This document shows, one piece after another, positions 1 to 15,184 of a stretch of 64,000 bases of DNA (its first letter is position 1; every line of letters starts with the position of its first letter). Location of the stretch: the NCBI GenBank assembly GCA_964396385.1, contig CAYNFH010000004.1:5008-69007 (forward strand), in the 5' to 3' direction. Both the position numbers and the translations under genes were made by a program. The stretch comes from an uncultured Chthonomonadaceae bacterium. GTDB lineage: Bacteria > Armatimonadota > Chthonomonadetes > Chthonomonadales > CAJBBX01. The notes under the pieces are model-generated. The model was not told the origin of the DNA and ran no database searches. It saw nothing but the letters and a program-made list of their open reading frames with translations.

Positions 1-1
1 A

Positions 2-241
2 TTCACCGAGCCGTGTATAGAGCTGCCGACGATGAATATCTTGGAATACTACGACCCGGAGATTGGCCACAAGAAGGTGTTCGAGCATTACCTGACTCGT
101 CTGGTGGAAAGTTGGCTTCGAGACGTAGCATACCACTGGCGTTCGGAGAGACCGCCTTACATGGAAAGCCTGAAACAAATCGGGCTGGCCCAAAGCATCG
201 CCAATGGCTTTACGCGGATCGAGCCATCCACTGGGCCGTGA
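2..241 (+). CDS. 3' end of a hypothetical protein (open at the window edge)
   Basis: Frame is open from nt 2 to TGA at 239-241. The region is AT-richer than its surroundings. No motif recognised. Confidence 0.3.
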   Translation, partial: FTEPCIELPTMNILEYYDPEIGHKKVFEHYLTRLVESWLRDVAYHWRSERPPYMESLKQIGLAQSIANGFTRIEPSTGP

Positions 242-407
242 TCCTCTACGTCGAGACCAGATAGCGAGAATACCAACCATTTCGGCACTCAAGCCACGCG
301 GAAACTCCTTAGACAGCACGGAATCAGGTACTACTCGTCCAGTTCTGCTTTCTTGTCATGGCTCAAGGCGGAGCACAGACGACGAAGTGCCAGCACCCAG
401 AGCAGGC

Positions 408-2717
408 CTAATGGTTAAACAGAAACTCCCGGTCCGTTAGCACGGCCCAGTAGAGATCCTCCAGGGCGGCGCGACGGGTCTGGCGCTGCTGGGCCACGGT
501 GGCAAAGGGGTCCAGCGGACTCTCCGCCAGCACCTTGAGCAGCTTTACCTTCTCCTCCGGAGTGGGATAGCGGGAGAGGGCAGAGAGATAGAGCTCATTC
601 ACCACCTCCTCGTCGCTCGCTTCTCCGCTAAACAGCGAATCGATCACGCCTCCGGGGGCGCGCAGCTTCTGGTTCACCGTGTCGCCGTTCACCAGGTGGA
701 GCGCCTGCGCTACCGTGGGCGTCTCCTGCCGCTCGCAGGCGCAGGTCTGCTCCCGCACCGGCCGCCCGAAGGCGGTCAGGAAGTAGGAGGAGACCTGGGA
801 GTCCCGGAGCTGGAGCGCGCGCGTGCCGGCCGGGTAACCCTCGAAGACGGTGGGCACGCCGGTCACCTGGGCGAGCGCGTCCAGCATCACCTCCGCGGGA
901 AGCCTCCGCACGATGTAGTGAGAGTAGTAGCGGTCGTCTCTGGCGTTGATGCCGACCGGCTCCGCGGAGCGCTGGTACGCCTCGGACAGCAGGATGGTAC
1001 GGATGAGGCGCTTCACGTCATAGCCGCTCCGGATGAACTCCTGGGCCAGGGCGTCCAGCAGATCCTGGTTGGAGGGCGGGTTCGTGAGGCGCAGGTCGTC
1101 CACGGCTTCCACCAGACCGCGGCCCATGAAGTTGCGCCAGACGCGGTTGACCAGCGCCTTGGCGAAGTACGGATTGTCCGGCGCGGTGACCCAGTCGGCC
1201 AGCGTCTGGCGACGGTCTCGCGGGTCATCCAGCGCGATCTCCACACCGTCCAGCGGCCTGGGCGGCAGCGGTACGCCCAGGCGGGGGTGGTTGATGTCTC
1301 CTTCGGAGGAGGCTAGCACCAGCACCTCGCCGGGCCGATCGCCGTTCTTCAGGCGGACGCGGGCCATGAGGTTGGCCATCTGGTAGTAGTCGCGCTGTGT
1401 CCACTTCTCCAGCGGATGGTTGTGGCAGCGAGCGCACTGCACGGACATACCGAGAAAGGCCTGCGTGGTGGTCTCGGTAAGCTCGATGGGCTCCTTGTGC
1501 AGCAGGAAGTAGTTGGCCGCTCCGTTGTCCAGCGTGCTGCCGGTGGCGGTGAGGACCTCCCGGGCAAAGCGGTCCCAGGGTTTGTTCTCCGCGACGCTCC
1601 GGCGGATCCAGTTGTAGAAGCTCGTGAGGGCGGGGCCGGGCAGCTTGCGGCTGCTGACCAGCAGCAGGTCACACCACTTGTAGGTCCAGTAGTCCACGAA
1701 CTCCGGCCGTTGGAGCAGTGAATCGACCAGCTTCTCCCGCTTGTCCGGGCTGGTGTCACCGAGAAATGACTCGACCTCGCGCGCTTTGGGAAGGATGCCC
1801 GCCGTGTCCAGGTAGGCGCGGCGTATGAACTCCGAGTCCGTGCACCTCGGCGAGGCCGGAAGGTGGAGCGCGTCCAGCTTGGCCTGGACGAGGGAGTCGA
1901 TGAAGGATGAGGGATGAGGGATGAGGGATGAATCTGGATGAGGCGATGAGGCGATGAGGCGATGAGGCGTGGGCGGAGTCGTGAGTCGTGAGTCGTGAGT
2001 CGTGAGACCGGAATCATGCCGACTGACGACTGATGACTGACTACTGCCGACCGGCCCGAACGGGGAGATGACGCGGGCAAAGGCGACGCGGCTGCTGAAC
2101 CATACGGTGATGGCGGCCTCACCGCTGCCCGCCCCTTTCACCAGGCCGTTGTCATCGACAGTGGCGACCATGCTGTCGCTGGTCCCGAACTTCACCCATC
2201 GCGTCACGTCTTCCGCATGTCCGTCCGAGTAGTGGGCGCGGACGCGGATCTGCTCGGTGTGTCCCGGCAACACCTCCGCGGAGCGCGGAGTGACTTCCAG
2301 CGATTGGAGGCGTGGGTCCTCCGGCGCGGGCGGAGGCGCTCCTGCCGCGATCCATCCGGCTACCACTCGATAGTCCGTCGACCCCTTCTTGAGCCGCTCG
2401 CCGCCTCCGTGCCCAATAGTCATGGTGGGCTTCAGGATCATGAGGCTGGCGGAGGGGTCGCCCTTCACCACACGCCGGCCGAAGCTCTGGCGGGTGAGCA
2501 CGTCGTAGTCGGAGAGAGGGTCGAAGCCGCGCAGGCTGAGCTTCAGCCCGCCCTTACCGGCCGCCGCGCCGTGGCAGGAGCCGCCGTTGCAGCCCGCCTT
2601 GGTGAGCACGGGCAGCACCTGATTGCGGAAGCTGGGCGCATTGGCGGCTCCTCCTGCCGGTGCCAGTCCAACGACCGCACAGAGGCAAAGACCCATTACC
2701 AAGAAGTATTTCCTCAT
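408..2717 (-). CDS. DUF1549/DUF1553 domain protein with an Ig-like (Big_2-type) middle domain and a signal peptide
   Basis: N-terminal signal peptide. Motifs KAGCNGGSCHG and CARCHNHPLEKWTQRDYY are typical of the DUF1549/DUF1553 (PSD1-type) family. Its ATG overlaps the stop of the upstream small ORF (ATGA at 2714-2717). Contains a 150-nt low-complexity insert at 1899-2048. Confidence 0.85.
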   Translation of the reverse strand: MRKYFLVMGLCLCAVVGLAPAGGAANAPSFRNQVLPVLTKAGCNGGSCHGAAAGKGGLKLSLRGFDPLSDYDVLTRQSFGRRVVKGDPSASLMILKPTMTIGHGGGERLKKGSTDYRVVAGWIAAGAPPPAPEDPRLQSLEVTPRSAEVLPGHTEQIRVRAHYSDGHAEDVTRWVKFGTSDSMVATVDDNGLVKGAGSGEAAITVWFSSRVAFARVISPFGPVGSSQSSVVSRHDSGLTTHDSRLTTPPTPHRLIASSPHPDSSLIPHPSSFIDSLVQAKLDALHLPASPRCTDSEFIRRAYLDTAGILPKAREVESFLGDTSPDKREKLVDSLLQRPEFVDYWTYKWCDLLLVSSRKLPGPALTSFYNWIRRSVAENKPWDRFAREVLTATGSTLDNGAANYFLLHKEPIELTETTTQAFLGMSVQCARCHNHPLEKWTQRDYYQMANLMARVRLKNGDRPGEVLVLASSEGDINHPRLGVPLPPRPLDGVEIALDDPRDRRQTLADWVTAPDNPYFAKALVNRVWRNFMGRGLVEAVDDLRLTNPPSNQDLLDALAQEFIRSGYDVKRLIRTILLSEAYQRSAEPVGINARDDRYYSHYIVRRLPAEVMLDALAQVTGVPTVFEGYPAGTRALQLRDSQVSSYFLTAFGRPVREQTCACERQETPTVAQALHLVNGDTVNQKLRAPGGVIDSLFSGEASDEEVVNELYLSALSRYPTPEEKVKLLKVLAESPLDPFATVAQQRQTRRAALEDLYWAVLTDREFLFNH
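1899..2048. repeat. Composite tandem 7/8-mer low-complexity element inside a CDS
   Basis: Successive blocks: GATGAGG x about 5, GATGAGGC x4, GAGTCGT x4, a core GAGACCGGAATCATGCC, then GACTGAC x about 3. The total of 150 nt keeps the reading frame. Confidence 0.85.
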
Positions 2718-2908
2718 CTCTGGGATTCTGAGCGCGGGAGTGCGGCGACCGCTGCCCTCCAGACTTCGGGGTCGCCGAGTCGCACCGCCTGGTCCGCCCC
2801 TACGTTTTCAAGCAATAGGGCGAGTAGAGTAATCCTTTGTCTGTTGGACCAGAGCAGCCGGCCACGGATCATCTCGAGCTTCTCCGGGCACAGGTAGTAC
2901 CGCTGCAT
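2714..2908 (-). CDS. Small hypothetical protein (64 aa)
   Basis: ATG at 2906-2908. Its stop overlaps the ATG of the DUF1549/1553 gene (ATGA). Sequence begins MQRYYLCPEKLEMIRGRLLW; family not recognised. Confidence 0.3.
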   Translation of the reverse strand: MQRYYLCPEKLEMIRGRLLWSNRQRITLLALLLENVGADQAVRLGDPEVWRAAVAALPRSESQR

Positions 2909-2990
2909 GGCCTCCCCAGACTTCCATGCTCTTCCTCTTCGCCGGATCTTCCAGTCGCTGTTCTTCATCGCGAATAAACGCCCCCACGAT

Positions 2991-3071
2991 TCAAGCAAGC
3001 CAGGCAGACCGCGCGTCCTCAGATTCAAAGTCTCTCTCTGCCTTCGCGATCCACTCCTCACTCAGCGTCAT
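2991..3071 (-). pseudogene. Possible remnant of the HEPN partner of the upstream nucleotidyltransferase
   Basis: Only 26 codons are open (MTLSEEWIAKAERDFESEDARSAWLA, then stop). The start resembles HEPN N-termini, but no continuation was recognised in any frame. Confidence 0.25.
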
Positions 3072-3204
3072 GATCGTAGAGGGTCCGACCTCTCTCCAGT
3101 ATCTCGCGGATGAAATGGTCTCCCATGTCAAGCCGCTTGCGAACCTCGCCCGGTGTTCGCACCAGGATGTCCATTGGTAGGCGGACATCCAGCACCGAGC
3201 GGAC

Positions 3205-3432
3205 CTACCTGGAACGCTCGACAGGTCGCACCTGCGAGTTCATGATGACCATGAGGTCCACGTCGCTATCGGTGTGCGGCTTGCCGTAGGCATAGGACCC
3301 GAACAGGACGACCTTTTCCGGCTGGAATGCCTCTACTATGCACCGGGTGATCTCGGCGAGTAGCTCCTCCGTAACTGTGGGACGCGGCTCCTCCCACGTC
3401 GCGATTCTCGCGTTTGCCTGCGTGCGGCTCAT
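3205..3432 (-). CDS. Minimal nucleotidyltransferase (MNT-type, toxin-antitoxin-associated)
   Basis: Motif LFGSYAYGKPHTDSDVDLMV matches GS-x9-11-D-x-D. Its ATG overlaps the stop of the DUF1501 gene (ATGA at 3429-3432). Confidence 0.75.
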   Translation of the reverse strand: MSRTQANARIATWEEPRPTVTEELLAEITRCIVEAFQPEKVVLFGSYAYGKPHTDSDVDLMVIMNSQVRPVERSR

Positions 3433-4802
3433 AACAACTCCGCGATGGGGCGGGCCGAATACTCCACAACCGGGAGGGGACGGCCGCCGGGACTGGGCAA
3501 CTCGGTAGTCAGGTCGATGCCGAGGGCGGTAAGGAGGGTAGCCGCCACGTCCGCGGGAGGCGTGGGACGGTCCGTGGGGTAGCCGCCGGTCGCGTCCGAA
3601 GCGCCTACCACCCGCCCGCCTTTGATGCCGCCGCCGCCGAGCACAATAGACCAGCACTGCGGCCAGTGGTCGCGCCCGCCGGCAGGGTTGATCTTGGGCG
3701 TGCGGCCGAACTCGCCCATAGCCACCACGATGGTGTTATCGTACAGTCCGCGCTGCTGGAGCTCCTCGATGAGGCTTGCGTAGCCGTTATCGAACCATGG
3801 CCCGCAGAGGGTGCGGTACGCATCGATGGGGGTGAACGGGGCGGAGCCGTGGATGTCCCACGTGATTTCGTTGAACACAGTTTCAAACATGTTGATGGTG
3901 ACGAACCGCACCCCGCGCTCTATCATGCGGCGGGCCAGCAGACAGCTCTGCCCGAACTTGTTCATTCCGTACTTCTTGCGGGTCTCCTCGCTCTCCTTGG
4001 AGATGTCGAACGCCTCCCGGGCTTTGGCGGACGACATGAGGGTGTACGCCTGGTGGAAGTTCTGGTCCAGCAGGCGGGCGTCCGGGCTAGCCTCGAATGT
4101 TTTCACCGCCCCATCCACCGCCTCGCGAAGCTTGCGCCGCCTCTCCTCGCGGACGGCGGAGATGTAGTCCGGTGGCAGCAGGTCCGGAACCTTGAAGTTC
4201 TTGTCCGAGGGGTCAGCGTTCAGCACGAAGGGATCGTACTGCTTACCGAGGTAGCCGGCCGTCTGGCCGTGGGGCAGGTTCCCACCGGTGGGCCCCATGG
4301 GGCGGGGCATGAGGACGTGCGCCGGCACGTCCCCGCGCGGTCCTTTGAGGTAGCCCAGGATACAGCCCACGTGCGGATGCTCAATGCCGCCGGTGAAGAG
4401 CCGGCCGGTCTGCATCATCTGGTGGCCGGTGTCGTGGACGGCGGCGGCCGTGTGGTACACGGACCGGACAATGGAGAACTTGTCCGCGTGCCGGGCCATG
4501 CGGGGGAAGATCTCGGAGATCTGGATTCCGGGAACGTTGGTCTTGATGGGCTTGAAGGGACCGCGGATCTCCTGCGGCGCGTCCGGCTTCATGTCCCACG
4601 TGTCGAGCTGGCTCGGCGCTCCCAGGAGGAACAGCATGATGCAGTTGACATCCTTATCGCCGCGGACCTGCCCCTCCGCCTTGAGCGCGAGGAACTCCGG
4701 CATAGTGAGTCCCAGCATGGAGAGTGCGCCCGCGTGCAGGAAGTCTCGGCGCGTAAGCCCGTCGCACAGGTGTACCGGCTTCTGGGCATCCAGTCGGAAC
4801 AT
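3429..4802 (-). CDS. DUF1501 (sulfatase-like) protein with a twin-arginine signal
   Basis: Start chosen at ATG 4800-4802, behind a GGAGGA RBS. TAT motif TRRDFLHAG, and GRDHWPQCWS is typical of DUF1501. Confidence 0.85.
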   Translation of the reverse strand: MFRLDAQKPVHLCDGLTRRDFLHAGALSMLGLTMPEFLALKAEGQVRGDKDVNCIMLFLLGAPSQLDTWDMKPDAPQEIRGPFKPIKTNVPGIQISEIFPRMARHADKFSIVRSVYHTAAAVHDTGHQMMQTGRLFTGGIEHPHVGCILGYLKGPRGDVPAHVLMPRPMGPTGGNLPHGQTAGYLGKQYDPFVLNADPSDKNFKVPDLLPPDYISAVREERRRKLREAVDGAVKTFEASPDARLLDQNFHQAYTLMSSAKAREAFDISKESEETRKKYGMNKFGQSCLLARRMIERGVRFVTINMFETVFNEITWDIHGSAPFTPIDAYRTLCGPWFDNGYASLIEELQQRGLYDNTIVVAMGEFGRTPKINPAGGRDHWPQCWSIVLGGGGIKGGRVVGASDATGGYPTDRPTPPADVAATLLTALGIDLTTELPSPGGRPLPVVEYSARPIAELL

Positions 4803-5155
4803 GCTCGCTCCTCCGTTCCGCGTCCTACCACACTCCATAGGTCGCAAGACGACGGTTACATTATATCCCTTGACGGAAGACCGAAGACGGACGATCGAAA
4901 TGCGGGCTCCGTCCGTCACCCGTCCTCGGTCATCCGTCTGAGCCGAAGAGCCGCAAACAGCACGGCCGCGGACCCACACTCGTGGATCCGCGGCCGGTTC
5001 GGTGTCGGCGGCAGGAGCGGCCTGTATCCCGGACGGAGACCTGGACCTTCCGGAAGGCCGGCTCACGCCTCGCCGGGGCCTAAGCGGCGAGAGCACTGCG
5101 CGACAACTCTGCGGTTGTTATGCCACGGAGCGGCGGGGTTCTTCACACATTGGCT

Positions 5156-5228
5156 GGAGTGATGGAGTATTAGTGTAATGTCTCGGATCCCCATTCCGGT
5201 GCCCACCACTCCATCACTCCACTACTCC
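5156..5228. repeat. Intergenic hairpin repeat with GGAGTGATGGAGT arms
   Basis: Left arm GGAGTGATGGAGTATTAGTG, right arm CACCACTCCATCACTCCACTACTCC. Same arm family as the elements at 7028-7115 and 42293-42376. Confidence 0.8.
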
Positions 5229-5630
5229 GTTCTGCACCCCTGCCTGCTCCACCACCGGCTCGTCACGGGGGTAGAGGATGATGTAGGCGAGCGTGATGAG
5301 CGCGGCTGCAACGATGCCGAAGGCGGCCTGACCGAAGGTTACGATTGCGCGCGCGACGCAGAGCAGGCCAAAGGCGCACTCCAGCGCACCACGGGCGATG
5401 CCGACCTGGATCCAGGCTACATTGCGAATGGGATTCTCGGCCGCAGCCACGTACCCGATGCCCATGGTCAGCAGCGCGCAGCCCCAGATACCCAGGATAT
5501 AGTGGACGCCGCGCGGCAGGTCTCCAAAGCCGAACGCACGCTCCACACGGCCCGGAAGGAGCAGGAGTAGCGCGCCGAGCAGGAACAGTACGGCGGCATC
5601 CAGGATCAGTACGAACCGAAGCGCGCGCAT
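5214..5630 (-). CDS. Small polytopic membrane protein
   Basis: 138 aa starting from ATG 5628-5630, with about 4 hydrophobic segments. The longer ORF upstream of this start has no support. Confidence 0.55.
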   Translation of the reverse strand: MRALRFVLILDAAVLFLLGALLLLLPGRVERAFGFGDLPRGVHYILGIWGCALLTMGIGYVAAAENPIRNVAWIQVGIARGALECAFGLLCVARAIVTFGQAAFGIVAAALITLAYIILYPRDEPVVEQAGVQNGVVE

Positions 5631-5641
5631 ATTCGTCTCCC

Positions 5642-5965
5642 TTACTTCAGCATCTTGACCGCACCAAGGATACACAGCACGGCGCCGCCAAGACCGATCA
5701 CGAGAAACGGGAGCGAAATTGCGGCGTAAGCGGCTCCCTCCATGTGTCCCAAAAGCACCGGTTGGGTGATCATGCTGGCACACATACCGACGAGTCCCAG
5801 AGGCAATGCCAGCAGGAGCAGCACCACCGCGCCCAATACGTGAGCAATGCCGGGACCCTGCCGCGGTCCACCCAGGCTCGCACCGCACTGCCAGCAGTAG
5901 CTCGCCCCCGGCCGCTGCGCCGCTCCACACCGCGCACATTGCCATTCAGACCCCGCAGTGCTCAT
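5642..5965 (-). CDS. Zinc-ribbon membrane protein
   Basis: N-terminal C-x2-C...C-x2-C (WQCARCG...YCWQCG) followed by TM segments. Confidence 0.55.
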   Translation of the reverse strand: MSTAGSEWQCARCGAAQRPGASYCWQCGASLGGPRQGPGIAHVLGAVVLLLLALPLGLVGMCASMITQPVLLGHMEGAAYAAISLPFLVIGLGGAVLCILGAVKMLK

Positions 5966-5979
5966 AGAGAATCACCCCT

Positions 5980-6306
5980 CTAAGATCGGCGGAGCAGTCC
6001 GATCATCGCCAGCACCCATACTGCAATTAGGACCGCTATGCCGAGGAGAATAGGCGTTGGACTGCCGGCGCTCGATGTACCGGACGCGTTGCACGTTGCC
6101 GCGAGCGCCAACACCCCCGCTGCGAAGAGGCCGGCCGCGGTGGCTACGGTGACCGCCAAGGTCAGCAGTACCGCCGCCAGGATCCGCCAGATAGAGAGGC
6201 CGCTCCTATCGGGGGCCGCACGCTGGCCGCAGTGGGCGCAGTAGACCGCGTATCCGCCGAGCAAAGCGCCGCAGCGGGCACACCTGTGCAGCGTCTGCGG
6301 CGGCAT
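5980..6306 (-). CDS. Zinc-ribbon membrane protein (paralogous architecture)
   Basis: CARCG...YCAHCG followed by TM segments. Lies immediately downstream of lgt. Confidence 0.55.
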   Translation of the reverse strand: MPPQTLHRCARCGALLGGYAVYCAHCGQRAAPDRSGLSIWRILAAVLLTLAVTVATAAGLFAAGVLALAATCNASGTSSAGSPTPILLGIAVLIAVWVLAMIGLLRRS

Positions 6307-6307
6307 G

Positions 6308-7024
6308 TCACGCGCCTGCGGCCTGTGGCGCGGGCCGGCGGTACGAGAGCGCGAGGCCGATGGCGGCTGCCAGCGCCAGCTCCAGGCAGACGGCCTGCGC
6401 GAGCGACAGTCCCACGAAGCTCAGCGACCGCTCCCGCGTAAACTCCACCAGGAACCGGGAGACGCCGTAGAAGAGCAGGTAGACCTTGAAAAGATCGCCC
6501 TCCCGTTGCAGCCGGGTCCGCAGAGCGAGCAGAATGACCAGGATGGCCGCTGCCGCGCCGGAAGCGTAGAGCTGCGAGGGATGCCGCCACGCGCCATGCT
6601 GGTAGACCGCCCAGGGCACACGGCTCACCGTGCCGTAGCAGCAGCCATTGAAGAAGCAACCGATGCGTCCCACCGTCTCGCCGGCGGGCAGCGCGAGGGC
6701 GAAGAGGTCGCCGGTAGAGCGGCGGATGCCCAGGCGTCGCTTGGCCAGCTCCACACAGATCCAGCCGCAGATGACCCCGCCAATCAGCGTGCGGCCGCCG
6801 TTCCGCGGGTCCAGCACTGAGGCGAGATGCGCCGCCAGCGCGGTGAAGTGGGCCACCGCCCACTCCGTCAGCTTCGCGCCCAGTAAGCCACCTGCCAAGC
6901 CGGCCACCGCAACCCGGCCCGTGCCCTCCGTGTCCATGCGCTTCCGGCGCGCCGCCACGTAGAACACTGCGGCGCCTACCACGTAGGCCAGAGAGGTGAA
7001 GAGCGCACCTATAGTCGGGTTCAT
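6308..7024 (-). CDS. lgt: Prolipoprotein diacylglyceryl transferase
   Basis: Lgt signature GRIGCFFNGCCYG in a polytopic protein. Start is at ATG 7022-7024, directly after the hairpin repeat. Confidence 0.85.
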   Translation of the reverse strand: MNPTIGALFTSLAYVVGAAVFYVAARRKRMDTEGTGRVAVAGLAGGLLGAKLTEWAVAHFTALAAHLASVLDPRNGGRTLIGGVICGWICVELAKRRLGIRRSTGDLFALALPAGETVGRIGCFFNGCCYGTVSRVPWAVYQHGAWRHPSQLYASGAAAAILVILLALRTRLQREGDLFKVYLLFYGVSRFLVEFTRERSLSFVGLSLAQAVCLELALAAAIGLALSYRRPAPQAAGA

Positions 7025-7027
7025 TTT

Positions 7028-7115
7028 GGAGTACTGGAGTGATGGAGTGGCGGGATAATGGGCCCGGATTCCGCCTCCCGGACACAACTCCATTACTCCA
7101 ATACTCCATCACTCC
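7028..7115. repeat. Intergenic hairpin repeat (GGAGTGATGGAGT arms, CCGGATTCC core)
   Basis: Left arm GGAGTACTGGAGTGATGGAGTGG. The loop contains CCGGATTCC at 7064-7072. Right arm ACTCCATTACTCCAATACTCCATCACTCC. Confidence 0.85.
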
Positions 7116-7125
7116 GTTGATCCCT

Positions 7126-8463
7126 TCAGGCGCCGGCCTCCGCCAGGGCTACCTCTTCCACACTCACCTCGGGTATCTGGGCGGCTGCCGTCTGGAGGGC
7201 GTGCGCTCGCCGGGTGAGGTATCCGTACTCCACCGCGGCGGCCACCGAGTAGGCGATCGATGCCAGCCACATCCCGGGCATGCGCAGAGCCAGCCCGATG
7301 AGCAGCATAGCGGCGTGGAAGGTGAGGTTGAGGGCCATGCCGTGGTACACCGCCTTGGGGCAGCCCAGAGCCATAAGTCGTCCACGCGACGAGGAGCCGA
7401 GGGAGGTCAGCAGCGGGAGCAGGCAGCCGGCGGCGATGCCCACCTGCGCTAGCGGCCGGAGCGCGGGGGCCAGACGGACCACGCCGGTCAGATACAGTCC
7501 CAGCAACGGCGTCAGCGCGATGAGCGCCGTGATGACGGTGGTGGCGATGCCCACCAGCCAGGCGAACCGGGCGAGCGGCCTCCGGGCCTCGGGCTCGCCG
7601 CCGCGGGCCACCGTGATCTCCTGAAGGGCGAAGCCCCAGCCCCGCATCACCAGGAGCAGCGTGGCCACCACCGGCCAGGCGGCCAGGGTGGCTTCGCGCA
7701 TCGGCAGCCGGGCCAGGGCGGCAGCCGTCATCGGCTGTGCGACCAGCGTGAGCAGCGTGGTGAGGGCGAGTGGCGCGTGAAAGCGTAGTATGGCGCGCTG
7801 AGAGAGGGCGGGCCCGGGCTCTTCGACCGGCAGAACCTCCCGCCGCAGCAGGGGCGCCGCGAAGAAGGTGGTAGCCATCGCCTCCGCAAGCACGGCCGCC
7901 ATAAGCGTGATCCCGCCCACCTGCGCGCCGGGGAGCGGGCCCCAAGCGGCGAGTGAGAGGGCGGTCGCCACGGTCACGGCCAGGCGGATGGCGGTGCCCC
8001 AGGACACCTTGCGCGTCTGGCCACGGCGGATCAGGATGCCTTGATGGAAGCGCCGCCACGCGATAGCCGCGGTCCAGAAGATCATGATCTGGAGGGCAGG
8101 CCTCGCTGCTGTGGCGATGTCTGTCGGCTGACCCATCCAGCCGAGCGCCACTCGTCCATAAAGCGGGGTGAACGCGAGGAGGGCCGCCAGAGCCGTGCAG
8201 AACGCCAGCACGGTGAGTGTGAATCGGCGAAGAGCGCGGTAGGATGGGCCGTCACGTACCAGGGCGATAGCGGTCGCCAGCAGCATGATGACGGGGCTCT
8301 CCACCAGCAGCGAGAGGGACATGGTGAGGCCCCAGGCGGCCAGGTGGAGCGACGCGTGCGGGAGCCGCCCGATGGCGGCCTGCACGGCCGGCCCTTCTAG
8401 CATCATCAGCTCAAAGCTCACCGCCAGGGGGAGCCAGAGCGCGGCAATGGTGCGGATGCGCAT
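7126..8463 (-). CDS. Polytopic membrane protein (10 or more hydrophobic segments), family unresolved; possibly MATE/flippase-like
   Basis: 445-aa ORF that is hydrophobic throughout. Antisense ORFs here look like GC artefacts. Confidence 0.6.
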   Translation of the reverse strand: MRIRTIAALWLPLAVSFELMMLEGPAVQAAIGRLPHASLHLAAWGLTMSLSLLVESPVIMLLATAIALVRDGPSYRALRRFTLTVLAFCTALAALLAFTPLYGRVALGWMGQPTDIATAARPALQIMIFWTAAIAWRRFHQGILIRRGQTRKVSWGTAIRLAVTVATALSLAAWGPLPGAQVGGITLMAAVLAEAMATTFFAAPLLRREVLPVEEPGPALSQRAILRFHAPLALTTLLTLVAQPMTAAALARLPMREATLAAWPVVATLLLVMRGWGFALQEITVARGGEPEARRPLARFAWLVGIATTVITALIALTPLLGLYLTGVVRLAPALRPLAQVGIAAGCLLPLLTSLGSSSRGRLMALGCPKAVYHGMALNLTFHAAMLLIGLALRMPGMWLASIAYSVAAAVEYGYLTRRAHALQTAAAQIPEVSVEEVALAEAGA

Positions 8464-8530
8464 GTGTAGGAGTAGGGGCGGCCCCGTGTGGCCGCGTCTA
8501 CAGAGTACCTACGCGTGGTACGCTGTGTCC

Positions 8531-9541
8531 ATGAACCTCCCTCCAAACCAGCAGCTCGCCGCGCCGGGGAAGTGGCCCGTGGTGGGCGAGAAGGCGCCCC
8601 GCAACTCGGACGCGCCGTGGGCCGTGACCATCACGGGGTTGGTGGAGCATCCCCGCTCGTGGACACTGGAGGAGCTGCAACGGATGACTCCAGTGGAGCG
8701 TGTGATGGACATCCACTGCGTCACGCGCTGGTCGCGCCTGGACGTCCGGTTCGGGGGCGTGCCGCTGGCCGGCCTGCTCGATGAGTGCCGGCCGTTACCT
8801 GAGGCGCGCTTCCTCTCCTTCGTCGCCCGCAGCGTTCGGCGCCACAGCACCTCCCTCCCACTGGAAGATGTAATTGCATTGGACGCCCTCGTGGCCCTGT
8901 CCCACGAAGGAGAGCCGCTGGAGCTTATCCACGGCGGACCGGTGCGGATGGTAGTACCCGGCCGATACTTCTACAAGAGCGTGAAGTGGCTGGAGCGGAT
9001 CGAGGTCCTGGCGGAAGACCATCTGGGTTACTGGGAGGCGGAGGCCGGCTATCACAACAGCGCGGACCCGTGGCAGGAGCAGCGATACGCCGCGCCCAAT
9101 CTGGACCGCCGCCTGGTGCGGCAGGCACTGGAGCGGCGAGACTTTCGCGGCGGGGACTTCCGTGGCCTGGATGCGCGGAGCCGGAACCTGGAGGGTTTGA
9201 ACGCCCGCGGCGCGCTGCTCCGTGACGCCGACTTCCGGCATGCGAAGCTCACGAACGCCGACTTTACCGGCGCCAACCTCTCCAATGCCCACCTGCAGCA
9301 CGCCGATCTCCGCGGCGCCTCATTCGTAACCGCAGACCTGGAGGGCGCGGACCTGGAGGGCGCGGACCTCAGCGGCGCGGACCTGACGGGCGCTTCCCTC
9401 TTTGGCGCTACTTTCTGCGCAGACGCCGAGACTTCGCATGGCGCCGTTCTGAGCCCTTCGACCCGCATCTCTCTGGAGGCGCTGGAGGTCCTCACGCCTT
9501 TCCAGCAGCGATTTGTCCGGGAGTTAATTGAATTCCGCTAA
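8531..9541 (+). CDS. Sulfite-oxidase-like molybdopterin oxidoreductase domain fused to C-terminal pentapeptide repeats
   Basis: DIHCVTRWS motif of the Oxidored_molyb family. The C-terminus carries ADLEGADLEGADLSGADLTGASL-type pentapeptide repeats. Start is at ATG 8531. Confidence 0.75.
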   Translation: MNLPPNQQLAAPGKWPVVGEKAPRNSDAPWAVTITGLVEHPRSWTLEELQRMTPVERVMDIHCVTRWSRLDVRFGGVPLAGLLDECRPLPEARFLSFVARSVRRHSTSLPLEDVIALDALVALSHEGEPLELIHGGPVRMVVPGRYFYKSVKWLERIEVLAEDHLGYWEAEAGYHNSADPWQEQRYAAPNLDRRLVRQALERRDFRGGDFRGLDARSRNLEGLNARGALLRDADFRHAKLTNADFTGANLSNAHLQHADLRGASFVTADLEGADLEGADLSGADLTGASLFGATFCADAETSHGAVLSPSTRISLEALEVLTPFQQRFVRELIEFR

Positions 9542-9549
9542 GAATCTTC

Positions 9550-9578
9550 TTGACAGCCGGGCGGCAGGCCTATATACT
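9550..9578 (+). promoter_or_regulatory. Sigma70-like promoter upstream of the LacI-family gene
   Basis: TTGACA (9550-9555), a 17-nt spacer, then TATACT (9573-9578), about 65 nt upstream of the ATG at 9645. Confidence 0.5.
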
Positions 9579-9644
9579 GCTTGCATCCGGCGCAAAAGTA
9601 CTTTAGCCGGCCTGAATGACCGGTCCTCGCGTCCGGCAGGGAGT

Positions 9645-10718
9645 ATGGGCGTGTCCCAGGATGGCGCACCAAAACAAGGCCGAGTAACGCTCGCGGAAGT
9701 TGCAGAGCGTGCCGGCGTGTCCACCACTACCGTCTCTCTCGTCCTTGGCGGCAAGGCGGACCAGCACCGCATCTCGGAAGAGACGCACCGCCGGGTGAAA
9801 CAGGCGGCGGACGACCTGGACTACGTCCCGAACCTGCTGGTCCGGTCCATGCAGCGCGGACGGACCCACGTGCTCTCGTTCTTCAACGGATACCGTACGC
9901 AGCGGATGGCGACGGACCTGTACATGGACAGGCTCTCCACCGCTATCCAGAACGCGGCGGGGCAGCGGGGCTACGACATCCTGGTCCACTGCAACTTCAG
10001 CCGCACCGCCCGTGATACGTACCGGCAGGTCAACGGCGGACGGGCGGACGGGCTGCTTCTCTTCGCACCTACGCTGGAGGACCCGCTGCTGCCCTACCTT
10101 CGCGCCTCGAGGCTACCGGTAGTGCTCGTCAATGCGGAGGATCCGCACCGGGTGCTACCTTCGGTCCGCGATGACGTGGAATCCGGAATGCGGCAGGTTG
10201 CGGAGGCGCTCGTCCGGGGCGGGCATCAAAGGATCGCCGTCGTTACAGAGGCCCGAGAGCACGTGGACGACGCGCACGCCCGGATCCGGCTTCTCCGCCG
10301 CTATCTGGCGGAGGCGGGCGTCGCCATTCCGGACGAGTGGGTGATCCCCTACGGCGCGGGCGAGGCGCTCCGTGGATTTCTGCAGCGCCCGGAGCGGCCC
10401 ACCGCCCTCTTCTGCTGGCGGGACCGCATCGCCTACTTTGCGCTGGAGATCTGTGAATCGGTGGGCATCTCCGTGCCGGAGGAGCTGTCCATCGTGGGGT
10501 ACGACGGGCTGCCCTGGCCCGCGGCGACCCGCCATACAGCCGCTTCCGTGTATGTCGACCTGGAAGGGCTGGCCGCCTCCGCCGTGGAGCTGCTGGACAA
10601 GTACGTGAACGGTTACCGGGGGGAAGTTACTCAGTGGACGCTGCCCGTCACACTGACGTCCGGGACGACCCTCGGCCCCGCACCCAGTCCCGGACGCGCC
10701 GAAAGGAGACAATTGTGA
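9645..10718 (+). CDS. LacI-family transcriptional regulator
   Basis: N-terminal [26 protein letters not shown] plus a periplasmic-binding-fold C-terminus. Its stop overlaps the next ATG (TGATG). Confidence 0.85.
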
Positions 10719-11584
10719 TGTCAGTCGCACGACACCGAAGCCGATGGCGCGGCTTCACCCTTATTGAGCTGCTTGTAGTTATCGCCATCATCGCCATCCT
10801 CGCCGCCATCCTGTTCCCGGTCTTCGCGCAGGCCCGGGAGAAGGCCCGCGCCATTAGCTGCATCAGCAACCTGAAGCAGATCGGCATCGGGACCATGATG
10901 TACATTCAGGATTACGACGAGGTCTACCCGCTCGGCTATACCTGGCTCTCCACGGATAGCAACGGATGGGGCGGCACTATGTGGACGGTCTCGCTGGGGC
11001 CCTACATCCAGAAGTACGGAAACACGAACGACGAGTTCGTGAATGGCCAGGTGAATGGTGGCGTCTACATCTGCCCGGACATCTCTTTCGCGCTGGACGC
11101 CAACCTAAAGCCCATGCCTCCTCCCGGAATCGGCTACGGTCTGAACGAGTCACAGATGACGACCGGCTGGACGCGGATCGGCAAGCTCTACACGTATCCG
11201 GGCGTGGCACAGGCATCCATCCAGGCGCCCGCGCACCTCGTGGACTATGCGGACGCGGCCACCGTGGACGCGAAATCGGACCCGAACAGTGACCTCACGA
11301 ATAACGAGAACTGCAACGGCGACTACAATAATCCGGGCGACACGAAGTGCGGACCCTTCAACATCCATCCGGAGAAGTGGAAGGGCATCGCCGTAACGGG
11401 ATGGGACTTCGCCATTCCGGGGGTCGGAGACGGTGACTGGTCCAGCCGCCATCGCGTGCCGTACTTCATCCACTCGCAGCGGTGTAACGCGGTCTACGCG
11501 GACGGCCACGCCAAGTCAACGGCAGGAGGGACGCTTCAGGCCCGCATCGGCACGGATGCGGACGTGTGGCATAACCATCCTTAG
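10718..11584 (+). CDS. Type II secretion/type IV pilin-like pseudopilin with a DUF1559 (H-X9-DG) domain
   Basis: Prepilin cleavage/methylation motif [26 protein letters not shown]-terminal [22 protein letters not shown]. Confidence 0.85.
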
Positions 11585-11600
11585 CCGTCGTCAAAAAGCG

Positions 11601-11640
11601 GCGGCAGGAGCCTATGCACGCTCCTGCCGCCGGTCTTTGT
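11601..11640 (+). terminator. Stem-loop after the pseudopilin gene (possible partial terminator or attenuator)
   Basis: GCGGCAGGAGC, an 8-nt loop, GCTCCTGCCGC, followed by CGGTCTTTGTCTC. An A-tract lies upstream. Confidence 0.45.
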
Positions 11641-11653
11641 CTCAGAATTTCTG

Positions 11654-13579
11654 ATGGGAAGCAAAGCAAGAAACATCGTCGCCGTTACGCTTGTTGTTGC
11701 CGCGGTAGGCGCGGCGCTGGCGGTGTCGGTGCCGTACACGGCGGCCTACCGGAACGCGCGCTTCTCCCGAATGAGCCTGGACGAGCAGATCCGCACCCAG
11801 GCGCGGTACGCCGACGACCCGATCTTCCTGTACTACCTGGGCCGCAAGCTCAACCGGCAGCAACGGTTCGCGGAGGCGCGGCCGTTCCTGGAGAGAGCCG
11901 TGGGCATCGATCCGGACTCGGTCGCCTACCGAGACGAGTGGGCTCGCGCCCAGCTCGGCACGGGGCAGGTCTCCACCGCCTTCGGTCAACTCCGCCAGTT
12001 CCTGGGTACGCACCCTCACTCGGCGGAGGCTCACCTGCTGGTGGCAAAGTTCTACGCCACTGAGCAGAATAATGAGCCCGCGCGACGAGCTCTGGAGGAA
12101 GCGGTGAAGCTCGACCCCGGCAATGCGGAAGCCTGGTCGCTCCTGGCCCAGGTCCGTGTCAAGCTGGGCAATACAGGGGGAGCGCAGGAAGCCCTGGAAA
12201 GAGCGCTGGAGCTGCGGCCGAACGACGCGAGCGACCACCTGCAGCTTGCGACGATTCTCGGGACGGACCCCCAACGGGCCGGGGCCGAGTACCGGCGGGC
12301 TCTGGAGCTAAGTCCCAAGGATGCCGTGTGCCACCGGCAGTATGGCCGATTCCTGCTGGACCATGGACAGCCGGCCGAGGCCGAAACCCAGGCGCGCCGG
12401 GCCCTGGAGCTGGGACCCGCCGATCCGCTCGCGGCCGATCTGGTGGGGCGCTGTCTTGTTGCCGAAGGCAGGGAGCGGGACGGTATTCCCTATCTGGAGC
12501 AGGCCGCCAGGCTGGCCCCCAGCGATCCCTTGCCGGTAGACGACCTACGCCGCGCGTGCGAGCGGATAGGCGACCGTGGGGCCGCGGCCAAGTGGCAGGC
12601 GCGTTTTGTCGTCCTGCGCGGAGAGGCTGACGAGCGGCGAGCGCTCAAGGATGCGACCAGCGCGCACCCGGAGGATACAGCCGCGCATTTGCGGTATGCC
12701 GCCGCCCTGGCCCGCATAGGGGACGTGAATGGCTGCGTCCAGCAGCATGCCTTCGCCGCCAGGACCAGGCCGGACAGCGCCCCTGTACTGATTGCCGCCG
12801 CGCGGGACCTGGACCGCTGCGACTACAGCAAGGAAGCGCTTCCACTCGCTCGCCAGGCGGCAGAGGCTGCCAACCAGAATCCCGAGGCATTCGAGACCCT
12901 GGGGGACATTCTCGTGCACCTCGGCCGCCTGGAGGAGGCAGCCGTCAATTACGACCGTATCCGGGACTGGAAGCAGAGCCAGCGGGCGGTCTACGCGCAG
13001 AGGATTGCGCACGAGGCCAAGATCCTGGCCAACAGCGATGCACCCGCGGAGAAACTGCTCCGCCAGGCGAGCCACGAGCAGGATACTGCCAAGGCCGAGC
13101 CGCTTCTTCATCAGGCCCTCGCCGTAGATCCGGACAACACGCGCTGTCTGCGAGCGCTTCTGCTGGCGCAATACCACCGTGGGGAAGCGGTGAATGCTAC
13201 GAACACAGCGGCGCGGCTCCTCACTATCTCCCCGGAGGACGGCATCGCCCACGCGCTCTTTGTAGTCCTGTATCTGCGCAGTCACTCGAAGAATACGCTA
13301 AGTGAGGCCGAGAACCGCGCGCTGGATGCCCACTTGGGGGTGGCCGGACAGGATACATTGGCTGCGCCCGCCGCCCTCTATGCCTCAGGGCTGGTTGAGC
13401 TCAAGCGAGGCCACCCTCAGACCGCAGTGCACGATCTGGAACAGGCAGCGCGCGTGGATCCCACATCGCTGGAGGTGTATCGCAAGCTGGCGGAAGCCAG
13501 GGATAGAGCAGGAGACGTGGCCGGCGCGAAGCGCGCCCTGGCGGAGCTTGAGCAGCGTCGGCATTCGATGGAGGAGTGA
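11654..13579 (+). CDS. TPR-repeat protein with an N-terminal membrane anchor
   Basis: 641 aa of repeated A-x3-Y/F..AL.LDP-type TPR units. Paralogue of the 43754-45283 protein. Confidence 0.8.
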   Translation: MGSKARNIVAVTLVVAAVGAALAVSVPYTAAYRNARFSRMSLDEQIRTQARYADDPIFLYYLGRKLNRQQRFAEARPFLERAVGIDPDSVAYRDEWARAQLGTGQVSTAFGQLRQFLGTHPHSAEAHLLVAKFYATEQNNEPARRALEEAVKLDPGNAEAWSLLAQVRVKLGNTGGAQEALERALELRPNDASDHLQLATILGTDPQRAGAEYRRALELSPKDAVCHRQYGRFLLDHGQPAEAETQARRALELGPADPLAADLVGRCLVAEGRERDGIPYLEQAARLAPSDPLPVDDLRRACERIGDRGAAAKWQARFVVLRGEADERRALKDATSAHPEDTAAHLRYAAALARIGDVNGCVQQHAFAARTRPDSAPVLIAAARDLDRCDYSKEALPLARQAAEAANQNPEAFETLGDILVHLGRLEEAAVNYDRIRDWKQSQRAVYAQRIAHEAKILANSDAPAEKLLRQASHEQDTAKAEPLLHQALAVDPDNTRCLRALLLAQYHRGEAVNATNTAARLLTISPEDGIAHALFVVLYLRSHSKNTLSEAENRALDAHLGVAGQDTLAAPAALYASGLVELKRGHPQTAVHDLEQAARVDPTSLEVYRKLAEARDRAGDVAGAKRALAELEQRRHSMEE

Positions 13580-13585
13580 AGAGAG

Positions 13586-13846
13586 ATGAAGCAGCAGGTT
13601 AGTCCCGCTGTTATCGCGATCATCGTGGTGGTGGTCGTGGCCATCTGCGCGTTTGTGGGCTATCGGATGTTGCGCCCGCCAACCGCTACGGCCAATGTAT
13701 CGCCGCAAGCTCTCCAGGCGCACCAGGTGCCGAAGGAGTTCAACGGGCAAGTGGTGCCTCCAAACGCGCCGGTGGACATCCCTGTCCAGGCAATGCAATC
13801 CGGAGCGGCTAACGGGCAAGCGGCCCCAGGTACCTCCGGCCCATAG
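13586..13846 (+). CDS. Small single-pass membrane protein
   Basis: MKQQVSPAVIAIIVVVVVAICAFVGY TM segment. Occupies the same position as 43382-43690 in the paralogous module. Confidence 0.5.
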   Translation: MKQQVSPAVIAIIVVVVVAICAFVGYRMLRPPTATANVSPQALQAHQVPKEFNGQVVPPNAPVDIPVQAMQSGAANGQAAPGTSGP

Positions 13847-13847
13847 G

Positions 13848-15101
13848 GTGGAATTCCCGCGCGTTATTCGCGTGGAGTGGGGCCGGCTGGAAAGCCGGAG
13901 GCCGCGCTGTGCGGGGAGCAATGCGCGGCTGGGCGAGCACGGGATCGCGGTCCGGCCCTCCATCGCGCGGATCACGCTGGAGGACGGCTCCAGCGGCTTC
14001 GGCTCCTGCTGGGCATCCCGCGAGGCCTCCGAGCGGTTGATCGGCCGGCCGGTTTCCGAGCTGTTTGCCCCCTCTGAAGGCGTCCCGCAACGGTGGCGGG
14101 CCTTCGATTTCCCCCTCTGGGACCTAGCCGCCCGCCGCGCGGACGTGCCGGTGTACGCGCTGGCAGCAGAGGCACGGGTTCGGGGTTCAGGGTTCGGAGT
14201 TCGGTATCAGGAGAACGGTGAACCGAAGCCCGGAGTCGGGAGTCACCCCCTCACCCCTGCGGCCGCGCGAGCCTCGCCCGGCTCGCGAGTCGGAAGGCCG
14301 CAGCACCTTCACCCACTCACGGTCCCCTGCTACGACACCTCGCTTTACTTCGACGACCTGCACCTTGGCTCGACAGAGGAGGCGGCGGAGTGTATAGCCG
14401 GGGAGGCTCGGGAGGGGTTTGAGCGGGGCCATCGGGCGTTCAAGATGAAGGTGGGGCGCGGCGCCAGGCACCTGCCCCTGGAGGAGGGCACGCAGCGGGA
14501 CATCGCCATGGTGAGGGCGGTGCGCGAGGCGGTCGGCCCAGACTCCGCGCTGATGATGGACGCCAACAACGGCTACAACCTGAACCTGGCGAAGCGGGTA
14601 CTTGCGGAGACCGCGGAGTACCGAATCTTCTGGCTAGAGGAGCCGTTCCACGAGGATCCGGTGCTCTACCGCGACCTCAAGGAGTGGATGGAGCGCGAAA
14701 GTATTCCCACGCTCATCGCGGACGGAGAGGGCGACGCTTCGCCCCACCTTTTAGAGTGGGCGCGCGACGGGCTGGTGGACGTGGTGCAGTACGACATCTT
14801 CGGCTACGGGTTCACGCGGTGGATGGAGACCGGCCAACAGCTCGACGCGTGGGGCGTGCGGACCGCGCCGCACCACTACGGCGGCCATCTGGGCAATTAC
14901 GCCGCCTGCCACCTGGCGCCCGCCATCCGGCGCTTCACCTTCGTAGAGTGGGACCACTGTGACTCGGAGTGGCTGGATTGCTCCGGGTACACGCTAGAGG
15001 AAGGCCGCGTCCAAGTTCCTGACACTCCGGGCTTCGGCCTCGCTCTGGATGAATCCGCGTTTCAGCAGGCGGTCCAGAATTCCGGCTACCGCGTCCCCTG
15101 A
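13848..15101 (+). CDS. Enolase-superfamily enzyme (mandelate racemase / muconate lactonizing enzyme-like)
   Basis: FKMKVGRG, MMDANNGY and FWLEEPF motifs. GTG start 1 nt after the preceding stop is tentative. Carries a low-complexity insert at about 14170-14320. Confidence 0.75.
   Translation: MEFPRVIRVEWGRLESRRPRCAGSNARLGEHGIAVRPSIARITLEDGSSGFGSCWASREASERLIGRPVSELFAPSEGVPQRWRAFDFPLWDLAARRADVPVYALAAEARVRGSGFGVRYQENGEPKPGVGSHPLTPAAARASPGSRVGRPQHLHPLTVPCYDTSLYFDDLHLGSTEEAAECIAGEAREGFERGHRAFKMKVGRGARHLPLEEGTQRDIAMVRAVREAVGPDSALMMDANNGYNLNLAKRVLAETAEYRIFWLEEPFHEDPVLYRDLKEWMERESIPTLIADGEGDASPHLLEWARDGLVDVVQYDIFGYGFTRWMETGQQLDAWGVRTAPHHYGGHLGNYAACHLAPAIRRFTFVEWDHCDSEWLDCSGYTLEEGRVQVPDTPGFGLALDESAFQQAVQNSGYRVP
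14176..14257. repeat. Tandem heptamer element inside the enolase-superfamily CDS
   Basis: GGGTTCG GGGTTCA GGGTTCG GAGTTCG ... CCGGAGTCGGGAGTCACCCCCTCACCCC. The GGTTCRG arm type recurs at 18605-18671. Confidence 0.75.
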
Positions 15102-15184
15102 CCGATTATCAGCCGCGCAAAAGTCACGGGCGTGCGCCCAGAGGAACCATCGGCAACACTGCCGAATGCCCACGCGTCTGCTCT

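Follow-up and report, generated by a model that had tools for sequence, protein, structure and literature searches.

That cyanobacteria carry dispersed heptamer repeats has been known since 1990; STRR elements in the strict sense have a heterocystous cyanobacterial host and STRR1-3 unit sequences; since 2007, a general excess of such repeats in large bacterial genomes has reportedly been recognized, and the hosts of this class are free-living bacteria with large genomes. Here we describe a family of tandem units of 7 to 8 nucleotides (nt) in a 64,000-nt stretch of DNA from an uncultured Chthonomonadaceae bacterium (contig CAYNFH010000004.1, positions 5,008 to 69,007; hereafter the window), including a hairpin element at 7028-7115 whose relatives recur in many phyla. 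In the account of Mrazek et al. (2007), as summarized in later papers (PMC4679880, PMC4692102), the long simple-sequence repeats with units of 5 to 11 nt (LSSR5-11) are dominated by heptamers and belong to large free-living genomes. In Xanthomonas, (GGGANTN)n or GGGAATC repeats form 70 to 75 convergent pairs (~40% of sites), are 89 to 93% intergenic, and mostly lie between co-directional open reading frames (ORFs) near the upstream ORF, with few between divergent ones (Rehm et al. 2015, PMC4692102). TAACTGA direct repeats occur in Beggiatoaceae, Cyanobacteria, and Bacteroidetes without an evident transfer route (MacGregor 2015, PMC4679880).

An initial reading of the window from its letters alone (the sequence-only reading) had likened the family to STRR and to the small dispersed repeats of cyanobacteria, and the nearest analogues in the literature indeed belong to the long simple-sequence-repeat/STRR class (PMC4692102, PMC4679880). 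As in LSSR5-11/STRR repeats, head-to-tail units of 5 to 11 nt in at least three copies exceed chance, heptamers predominate, a limited set of units is dispersed over many, mostly intergenic loci, and different arrays stand side by side. The family differs from that class in its non-cyanobacterial host of 65% GC, in its many octamers (a conserved 5- to 6-nt block plus a variable spacer), in the placing of arrays around a conserved palindromic centre, and in having a third of its loci in frame within ORFs even though 7 and 8 are not multiples of 3. The genes of the window encode PSCyt/DUF1549/DUF1553, DUF1501, and DUF1559 (H-X9-DG) proteins, glycoside hydrolases, and a QueC-QueE-QueD cluster; both QueE and the PSCyt protein have their nearest homologues at ~70% identity. 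This gene content is not cyanobacterial, as had been noted, and the best named homologues are from Chthonomonadales, Armatimonadota (one protein, at most ~70% identity), which points to a distinct lineage without cultured members. Membership in STRR in the strict sense was rejected on these grounds and because the units differ.

The periodicity, the unit vocabulary, and the core of the family all exceed chance. A self-match scan of the window for periods 4 to 15 under a strict threshold returned seven period-7 and two period-8 arrays versus none in 30 dinucleotide-preserving shuffles, and 7 and 8 were the only enriched periods. Tandem Repeats Finder placed a period-7 or period-8 array at every locus of the sequence-only reading, all of which were found where it had put them, and three loci were added: 28176 (GGAGTATTGGAGT), 54458 (a GACGCGGC hairpin), and 63843. 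The arm words proposed to link distant loci were borne out: GGAGGAC is common to 32058, 52174, and 57009, GAGTCGT at 1976 returns as its reverse complement at 31632, and GGTTGAA at 29232 does so at 32101. Further shared units are GGGTTCG (14176 and 18605), CCCCTCA (14245 and 63843), and TCAGGTGT (35853), a rotation of GGTGTTCA (36498). Taken over ~18 heptamer arrays, there are ~7 unit-sharing pairs versus ~0.13 by our own arithmetic, which supposes uniform use of ~1170 rotation/strand classes. Allowing one mismatch, GGAGTNNTGGAGT was observed 15 times versus 0.9 expected. The core CCGGATTCC has six exact copies in the window versus ~0.8 by a base-composition estimate (~7-fold), and 49 matches with at most one mismatch versus 23.4 +/- 4.7 expected. 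Four of the six exact copies lie inside elements, at the positions 7064, 18637, 42329, and, on the minus strand, 31622 that had been given for them. The view that arms often surround such a core held as to its enrichment, mostly inside elements, but only about half of the listed loci have one. The alternative that these are unrelated low-complexity runs with no vocabulary beyond chance is contradicted by the window shuffles and the motif counts.

When inverted, arrays can fold, as transcript or as single-stranded DNA, into a very stable stem. Five loci with complementary arms, all of them intergenic copies (7028, 42293, 45293, 5156, and 36498), gave RNA folds more stable than shuffles (z = -3.2 to -7.1), whereas 32061, 18605, and 14176, which had been classed as non-complementary, folded no better than shuffles. 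The 7028 element is present exactly in two independent Logan assemblies (contigs L001 and L002) and is therefore not an assembly accident. Outside the window, the protein neighbouring it was found on just two short Logan contigs, both of which match part of the window exactly, and the Lgt-like protein with start 7024 had no record in an exact-protein look-up. Within the window, a tRNA/tmRNA scan found neither and Rfam gave no match at gathering score; at E <= 10, Rfam returned just sub-threshold generic miRNA-hairpin noise at 7028 within 6990-7150. The 19 array loci are as follows.

1899-2051, minus strand: composite element in the in-frame linker of the PSCyt1/Big_2/DUF1549/DUF1553 gene (408-2717, minus), from Tandem Repeats Finder and ORF read-through; in plus-strand order (GATGAGG/GATGAGGC)~9, then (GAGTCGT)4 - GAGACCGGAATCATGC - (CGACTGA)4; its part 1976-2051 folds weakly (z = -2.4).
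5156-5228, no strand: GGAGT-type hairpin, -31.5 kcal/mol, z = -3.2; its right arm includes the stop codon (5214-5216) of the minus-strand gene upstream.
7028-7115, no strand: GGAGT-type hairpin, (GGAGTRNT)3 - GGGCCCGGATTCCGCC centre - (ANYACTCC)4, -46.5 kcal/mol, z = -4.2; fills the 101-nt spacer from stop 7126 to the Lgt-like start 7024, both minus strand.
14176-14257, plus strand: (GGGTTCG)4 ... (CGGGAGT)(CACCCCCT) arrays within the enolase-superfamily gene 13653-15101 (Tandem Repeats Finder, PDB 3n4f alignment).
15185-15205, plus strand: single array (ACCATCA)3, 16 nt upstream of the malic-enzyme start codon.
18605-18671, no strand: (GGGTTCG)3.4 - GAGACCGGATTCC core - GC-rich tail, in the divergent intergenic region upstream of the PhyH gene; no significant fold.
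28176-28188, plus strand: two units of GGAGTATTGGAGT, isolated, possibly a relic.
29232-29247, plus strand: (GGTTGAA)2.3, forming the last codons and TGA stop of gene 28387-29244.
31622-31661, plus strand: half element of 39 nt, core GGAATCCGGTCTC + (ACGACTC)4, in frame in the GH127 gene (peptide ESGLTTHDSRLTT).
32058-32128, plus strand: (GGAGGAC)3 - AGATCCGGAATCCGA core - (TCAACCT)4, in frame in a linker of the GH127 ORF; no significant fold.
35853-35878, minus strand: single array (TCAGGTGT)3, 6 nt upstream of the SNF2-helicase start (35846, minus).
36498-36549, no strand: hairpin with arms GGTGTTCA / TGAACACC, filling the 68-nt spacer of two minus-strand genes; -26.2 kcal/mol, z = -3.3.
42293-42376, no strand: GGAGT-type hairpin with centre GACTCCGGATTCCGC, -51.6 kcal/mol, z = -7.05; the TAG stop of gene 41058-42299 is in its first unit, and a sulfotransferase gene is next.
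45293-45370, no strand: hairpin with arms GGTAAATG / CATTTACC and centre CCGGCATCCGG, filling the 89-nt spacer of two minus-strand genes; -40.6 kcal/mol, z = -7.1.
52174-52224, minus strand: degenerate (GGAGGAC)n, apparently an N-terminal, signal-peptide-like segment of ORF 49676-52231, whose start codon is inferred.
54458-54489, no strand: small octamer hairpin GACGCGGC / GCCGCGTC between convergent genes (Tandem Repeats Finder).
57009-57045, minus strand: (GGAGGAC)5, underlying a 14-amino-acid (42-nt) in-frame insertion in QueE.
58307-58357, minus strand: G-rich array (GGGAGGGA)(GAGCGGGC)4, either upstream of the small minus-strand gene 58027-58300 or across its 5' end.
63843-63863, no strand: (CCCCTCAC)2.6, its unit common to the right side of the 14176 element.

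The meaning of the core goes beyond what the sequence-only reading had seen in it. CCGGATTCC is the centre of a quasi-palindrome in 8-nt register, whose most symmetric copies read GGAATCC-GGATTCC, and this GGAGT-armed palindrome is found in many other phyla. With one genome taken for each GTDB species, an exact scan for GGAGTNNTGGAGTGATGGAGT yielded at least 120 stretches. Among the matches listed, carriers are mainly Verrucomicrobiota and Desulfobacterota, with others in Planctomycetota, Lentisphaerae, Gemmatimonadota (Longimicrobium), Bacteroidota, Cyanobacteria, Nitrospirota, and one genome of the Candidate Phyla Radiation (CPR), and the GC content of the loci runs from 39% to 73%; 33 of these 120 loci have the architecture of the window, that is, GGAGT arms and then ACTCC units at most 70 nt on, with a loop that often reads NNTGGG...(T)CCGGA(A/T)...CCCANN. 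Syntrophobacter sp. SbD2, an Opitutales assembly (OZ2198xx), and Chthoniobacter are examples of carriers with many copies. A metagenome scan in which both an arm and CCGGAWTCC were required likewise gave at least 120 matches; the complete arm-centre-arm structure is present in 42 of the 120 listed, and the remainder look like chance or other matches. The 15-mer centre GACTCCGGATTCCGC is common to the window element at 42293 and a metagenome locus (L223), and viral contigs carry the GGAGT element as well (e.g., TGGGATTCCGGATCCCA in L129). GGTGAG arrays in viral contigs also form hairpins. Thus, the (GGAGTRNT)n - TCCGGA(A/T)TCC - (ANYACTCC)n hairpin is not private to the window genome, and identical units and centres turn up at loci, and in phyla, that are not related to one another. 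The searchable literature held no description of the GGAGT hairpin family and no bacterial paper on the arm sequence.

The anatomy of the hairpin was analyzed with 42 non-redundant copies. In the unit profile, G G A G T R N T, conservation is at least 96% at positions 1 to 5 and 8; position 6 takes A or G, and any base can stand at position 7. At positions 6 and 7, 85 arm-to-arm pairs were observed versus 89 +/- 3 after within-arm shuffling and 101 +/- 5 after global shuffling, so the arms do not covary there. It follows from the conserved blocks and the unpaired positions 6 and 7 that the stem alternates 6-bp TGGAGT/ACTCCA blocks with internal mismatches of 2 nt, and conservation without arm covariation suggests that something constrains, or reads, the TGGAGT block and not merely the stem. 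Since T-R-N on the G-rich strand gives TGA, TAA, or TAG, a run of three units closes every frame; no frame is closed on the C-rich strand, as read from its sequence.

The hand-curated ORF map covers 89% of the window, and 10 of the 19 array loci fall in the non-ORF 11% (P = 8e-6). All five hairpins (5156, 7028, 36498, 42293, and 45293) lie between co-directional genes, and those at 7028, 36498, and 45293 take up 52 to 88 nt of spacers of 68 to 101 nt. The stop codon of the upstream gene lies inside the element at the hairpins 5156 and 42293 and at the array 29232, and the single arrays at 15185 and 35853 stop 6 to 16 nt short of a start codon. For the wider set of 68 to 73 hairpins, our ORF heuristics gave 39 co-directional, 21 convergent, and 1 divergent in a first count and 22, 5, and 1, respectively, under a stricter coding filter. 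The upstream stop is usually 0 to 20 nt before the arm or within it at +7, +15, and +23, and the next start codon is usually 9 to 23 nt past the arm. Almost all hairpins follow the stop codon of a gene, most of them between genes of one direction, and 9 to 23 nt ahead of the next start. Intrinsic (Rho-independent) terminators were rejected as an explanation: the 3' flanks are A-rich or mixed (AAAATG, GTTGAT, and the like), without U-tracts, and a scan of 1-20000 called none of the elements there a stem-plus-U-tract terminator.

The sequence-only reading had missed the in-frame copies, and its picture must be corrected here: at least six loci are not intergenic but are read through in frame within ORFs, several in conserved proteins. 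QueE aligned over its full length with the solved Burkholderia enzyme (PDB 4njg), leaving one clean 14-residue gap opposite (GGAGGAC)n; the length of this surface loop also varies in QueE of other lineages. For the enolase-superfamily protein, the barrel domain aligned strongly with PDB 3n4f (323 bits), and residues 77-121 (~45) at the 14176 element stand against 5 in 3n4f, a net insertion of ~40 amino acids. The arrays make up the greater part of this insertion, which continues past them for ~40 nt (14258-14300) as an imperfect palindrome rich in GC (gcgcgagcctcgcccggctcgcgagtcg). A composite element of 150 nt forms the inter-domain linker of the PSCyt/Big_2/DUF1549/DUF1553 protein, and in orthologues the linker is much shorter or holds another insert at that position. 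The 32061 array was not seen as a net insertion, as GH127 homologues cross that linker without a large gap. ORF-borne arrays keep the frame and lie in loops or linkers, and in every coding copy, as read from the sequence, the stop-free strand is the sense strand, as a tolerance filter predicts. These clean in-frame insertions in QueE and an enolase-superfamily member mean that the repeats also remodel protein loops and linkers.

Further observations touch on genes and arrays. On the Logan contig L001, the gene called 3' of the hairpin (1644-2405) starts 33 nt after the preceding stop; it is probably the Lgt-like gene, started at an ATG inside the hairpin (window 7093) and not at 7024. If so, gene callers extend ORFs into the elements, and automatic annotation is thereby distorted by N-terminal over-extension. 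On a phage-like IMG/VR contig (L137, 4581-6017), a GGAGT-type array lies in frame (…TPSLHHSTTP…) in an ORF of 478 amino acids and, from its sequence, apparently joins two enzyme-like halves. A Chthonomonadales-like relative carries (CTCAACA)4 within the 5' part of a DUF1501 gene (L152, 18029-18058). In the HEAT-repeat gene of the window (ORF 49676-52231), the first ~17 codons are apparently array encoded and have the look of a signal peptide; its start overlaps the stop of a GFO/IDH/MocA oxidoreductase gene in an ATGA at 52228-52231.

Orthologous positions, a comparison suggested by the sequence-only reading, differ in what they hold. The linker of the PSCyt gene has a different hairpin in each of several orthologues, namely, (CACAGAGNN)5 ... 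(CTCTGTGNN)4 in L004, (CACGGGGNN) ... (CCCCGTGNN) in L003, and, as deduced from the protein sequence, an AACAAG/CTTGTT type in P0134; in further orthologues the linker is short and empty. The hairpins in the relatives' linkers have period 9 and so keep the reading frame. The relatives that carry the PSCyt gene have arrays both between and within genes, fewer than the window has. In two viral-contig loci (L130 and L133, ~90% identical), one orthologous spacer holds (AATTAGG)5(GGAGTGAT)8 versus (GGAGTGAT)3, which shows copy-number turnover together with the gain of a new array beside the old one. Thus, within ~10% sequence divergence, array copy number changes and new arrays arise beside old ones. 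AATTAGG and GGAGTGAT units are also adjacent in an unrelated Opitutia contig (L100), and in Calothrix (L010 and L016) GGAGTGAT arrays adjoin CCGTCAA arrays.

Among the described systems, the Xanthomonas repeats share with the window family the fixed and free unit positions, the close convergent arrays able to form stem-loops, the co-directional intergenic location, and a copy number that varies between species. In its most symmetric versions, the element centre (GGGAATCC-GGATTCCC) is an inverted pair of the Xanthomonas heptamer. The two differ in that the arms here are GGAGTRNT or other units and are spread over many phyla, versus one genus. Only the single-copy centre resembles GGGAATC; the arms have no GGG runs, and no G-quadruplex is therefore expected. 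With the TAACTGA repeats, the family has in common one unit across distant phyla, a position a few nucleotides upstream of starts, one strand that stops all frames, and occasional intragenic copies, and the window unit CGACTGA is a near relative; the TAACTGA repeats differ in being direct only (one indirect case is reported) and in having no palindromic centre. Like REP/BIME elements and REPINs, the elements here are dispersed imperfect palindromes between co-directional or convergent genes that avoid promoters and can form stable RNA stem-loops in operons. The REPs of Proteobacteria are 20 to 40 nt long, have no tandem sub-repeats, bear a GTAG/CGTC terminal tag, and are tied to RAYT (Y1) transposases. 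By inspection, that tag is absent here: the arms begin with GGAGT, GGTAAATG, or GGTGTTCA, and the elements are 52 to 88 nt long and built of sub-repeats. Rickettsia palindromic elements (RPE) are unique-sequence palindromes of 100 to 150 nt that are confined to Rickettsia and lie in frame in conserved genes; palindromic repeats are likewise tolerated in frame here, yet they consist of tandem 7- to 9-mers, and many inserted copies are non-palindromic. In integron attC sites, R''/L''-L'/R' core sites (RYYYAAC ... GTTRRRY) bound an imperfect palindrome between cassettes; this candidate was rejected, as the flanks differ from the core-site consensus and the neighbours are housekeeping genes (the Lgt-like gene and QueE). 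The tRNA T-arm (GGTTCGAATCC) bears a likeness to GGGTTCG and GGAATCC, and some units resemble type IIS restriction sites; both parallels were dropped as over-fitting.

The explanation that we favour, with a probability of about 0.5, is that the elements are gene-less repeat DNA, with arrays that grow and shrink by slippage, persist where a tolerance filter lets them, and, when inverted, behave as REP/BIME-like stem-loops between cistrons. They would be long simple-sequence repeats of the STRR kind with no gene of their own, planned as an array of a 7- to 9-nt unit and probably, in the common form, as array - short palindromic centre (TCCGGA(A/T)TCC) - array. The arrays would grow and shrink by slipped-strand replication; in-frame, stop-free copies may persist in ORFs, and copies would be excluded from divergent promoter regions. 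In operons, the hairpins may behave as intercistronic RNA stem-loops, which are predicted to buffer the upstream cistron against 3'-to-5' decay and to uncouple the translation of the neighbours, and the G-rich arm, with TGA, TAA, or TAG in three frames, would also end any ORF that enters the hairpin.

Several points weigh against this explanation. Slippage accounts for changes in copy number but neither for seeding at new sites nor for GGAGT plus the TCCGGA centre across phyla; slippage acting independently cannot by itself give several loci one 7- to 8-mer, nor different phyla one arm and centre, and hence a copying or selecting process is missing from it. Variation is concentrated in two positions of the octamer, unlike random decay, and looks like a constraint on TGGAGT. 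The transcription of the hairpins and their effect on mRNA fate are predictions, and the stricter of our ORF heuristics for gene context missed several hand-curated genes of the window. In viral-contig stretches, GGAGT was the commonest of the units tested but not unique (14 versus 0, 6, 6, and 0 for composition-matched permuted 5-mers).

In one alternative, which we regard as unlikely, the elements belong to the miniature mobile elements (MITE- or REPIN-like) and depend for copying on a trans-acting enzyme that recognizes the TCCGGA(A/T)TCC centre and/or the arm blocks, with spread between phyla being horizontal and possibly on phages. A centre of 9 to 15 nt is shared by the window and unrelated contigs (GACTCCGGATTCCGC in 42293 and L223; GGATTCCGGATCC in L129), and viral contigs contain the element; several genomes have 3 to 6 loci among the matches listed, with 3 to 4 hairpins in 8 kb in L082, a half element (core plus one arm) stands inside a gene at 31622-31661, and orthologues hold different elements in one permissive linker. 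The copies are, however, not near-identical, since unit number, spacers, and loops all differ, and although inverted arms of the MITE kind are present, no target-site duplications are visible on reading the flanks of the five window hairpins. No RAYT, other transposase, or recombinase domain was found in the 30 ORFs of the window that were scanned, and the heptamer arm plus core (GAGTCGTGAGTCGTGAGACCGGA) had no match in the JGI metagenome scan. In L036, inverted arms 2.6 kb apart enclose a gene, but this encodes a sodium:solute symporter and not a transposase, by which an autonomous element was rejected there. In another explanation, the arrays would be bound by the ribosome or by a conserved factor with affinity for RNA or single strands, and the hairpin would mask or present them and so tune translation or coupling of the neighbouring cistrons. 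The motif is conserved in several phyla with free, non-covarying spacers, hairpins are placed 9 to 23 nt upstream of start codons, and GGAGGAC arrays are also in the window; the (U)GGAGU block resembles a Shine-Dalgarno sequence (GGAGUGAU versus GGAGGUGAU, the complement of the 16S rRNA 3' tail in general, which may not be that of the host), and ACUCC an anti-Shine-Dalgarno sequence. The control 5-mers with matches in viral contigs were only substrings of the extended Shine-Dalgarno sequence (GAGGT and GGTGA), but those counts are small and come from viral contigs only. There are parallels in the TRAP/HutP-type periodic sites and in the proposal of MacGregor for the TAACTGA repeats (PMC4679880). 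Nevertheless, the arm that abuts the start codon is ACUCC and not GGAGU, arrays occur in both orientations and within ORFs, and GGGTTCG, GAGTCGT, GGTAAATG, TCAACCT, and the CACAGAG of relatives have no Shine-Dalgarno likeness, which would call, implausibly, for one factor per unit; we consider this explanation quite improbable.

The view that the loci are unrelated low-complexity runs or ordinary intrinsic terminators and form no family is extremely improbable. It draws on the short arrays of 2 to 3 units (15185, 29232, and 35853) and on the three loci that fold no better than shuffles, against which such arrays never arise in shuffles, units and core are shared well beyond chance, and the hairpin flanks have no U-tracts. 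A bolder claim, which we hold doubtful, is that the GGAGT palindrome is a single element family, present in at least half a dozen phyla and in phages and upheld by a specific molecular partner; that partner might be an enzyme able to copy or lengthen arrays, working from the palindromic centre, or a conserved RNA-binding factor or anti-Shine-Dalgarno tail that reads the periodic UGGAGU. If it were true, a single mechanism would have produced the heptamer and octamer repeats found in cyanobacteria, Xanthomonas, Beggiatoaceae, and the Armatimonadota-like genome of the window.

Although the class of such repeats is known, the window adds a new host lineage, a cross-phylum octamer hairpin with a defined centre, conservation of the motif and not of complementarity, and in-frame insertions in enzymes. 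Since the GGAGT/TCCGGA subfamily is sharply defined and traceable across phyla and viral contigs, its phyletic pattern can be matched to candidate enzymes, which gives a handle on the old question of how the heptamer repeats of bacteria originate, spread, and function.

Other features of the window were recorded alongside the arrays. The segment 23000-28250 is an island of lower GC (57 to 59% versus 65%) that is almost without arrays; it encodes a second QueC-like protein, DUF6884, a SIR2_2 + AAA protein, a nucleoside 2-deoxyribosyltransferase, and a NUDIX protein, and looks like a 7-deazaguanine-related modification or defence island. On the minus strand of 34197-40060, two BrxC/BrxD-like ATPase ORFs and further unassigned ORFs come after an SNF2-family helicase, possibly a defence cluster, with arrays in two of its spacers (35853 and 36498). 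Two near-perfect, GC-rich palindromes of 34 nt (11599-11632 and 4963-4996; stems of 13 and 15 bp) are unrelated in sequence to the array family, and the terminator scan called the former on both strands and the latter on the minus strand only. The 15-nt period at 9331-9393 is an ordinary coding repeat outside the family; it belongs to a molybdopterin-oxidoreductase fusion protein (8285-9541), of which it forms the pentapeptide-repeat domain. A 21-nt period repeat with 3.7 copies lies at 43388-43465, one frame of which would give a proline-rich repeat of 7 residues (PPDVMPL-like).

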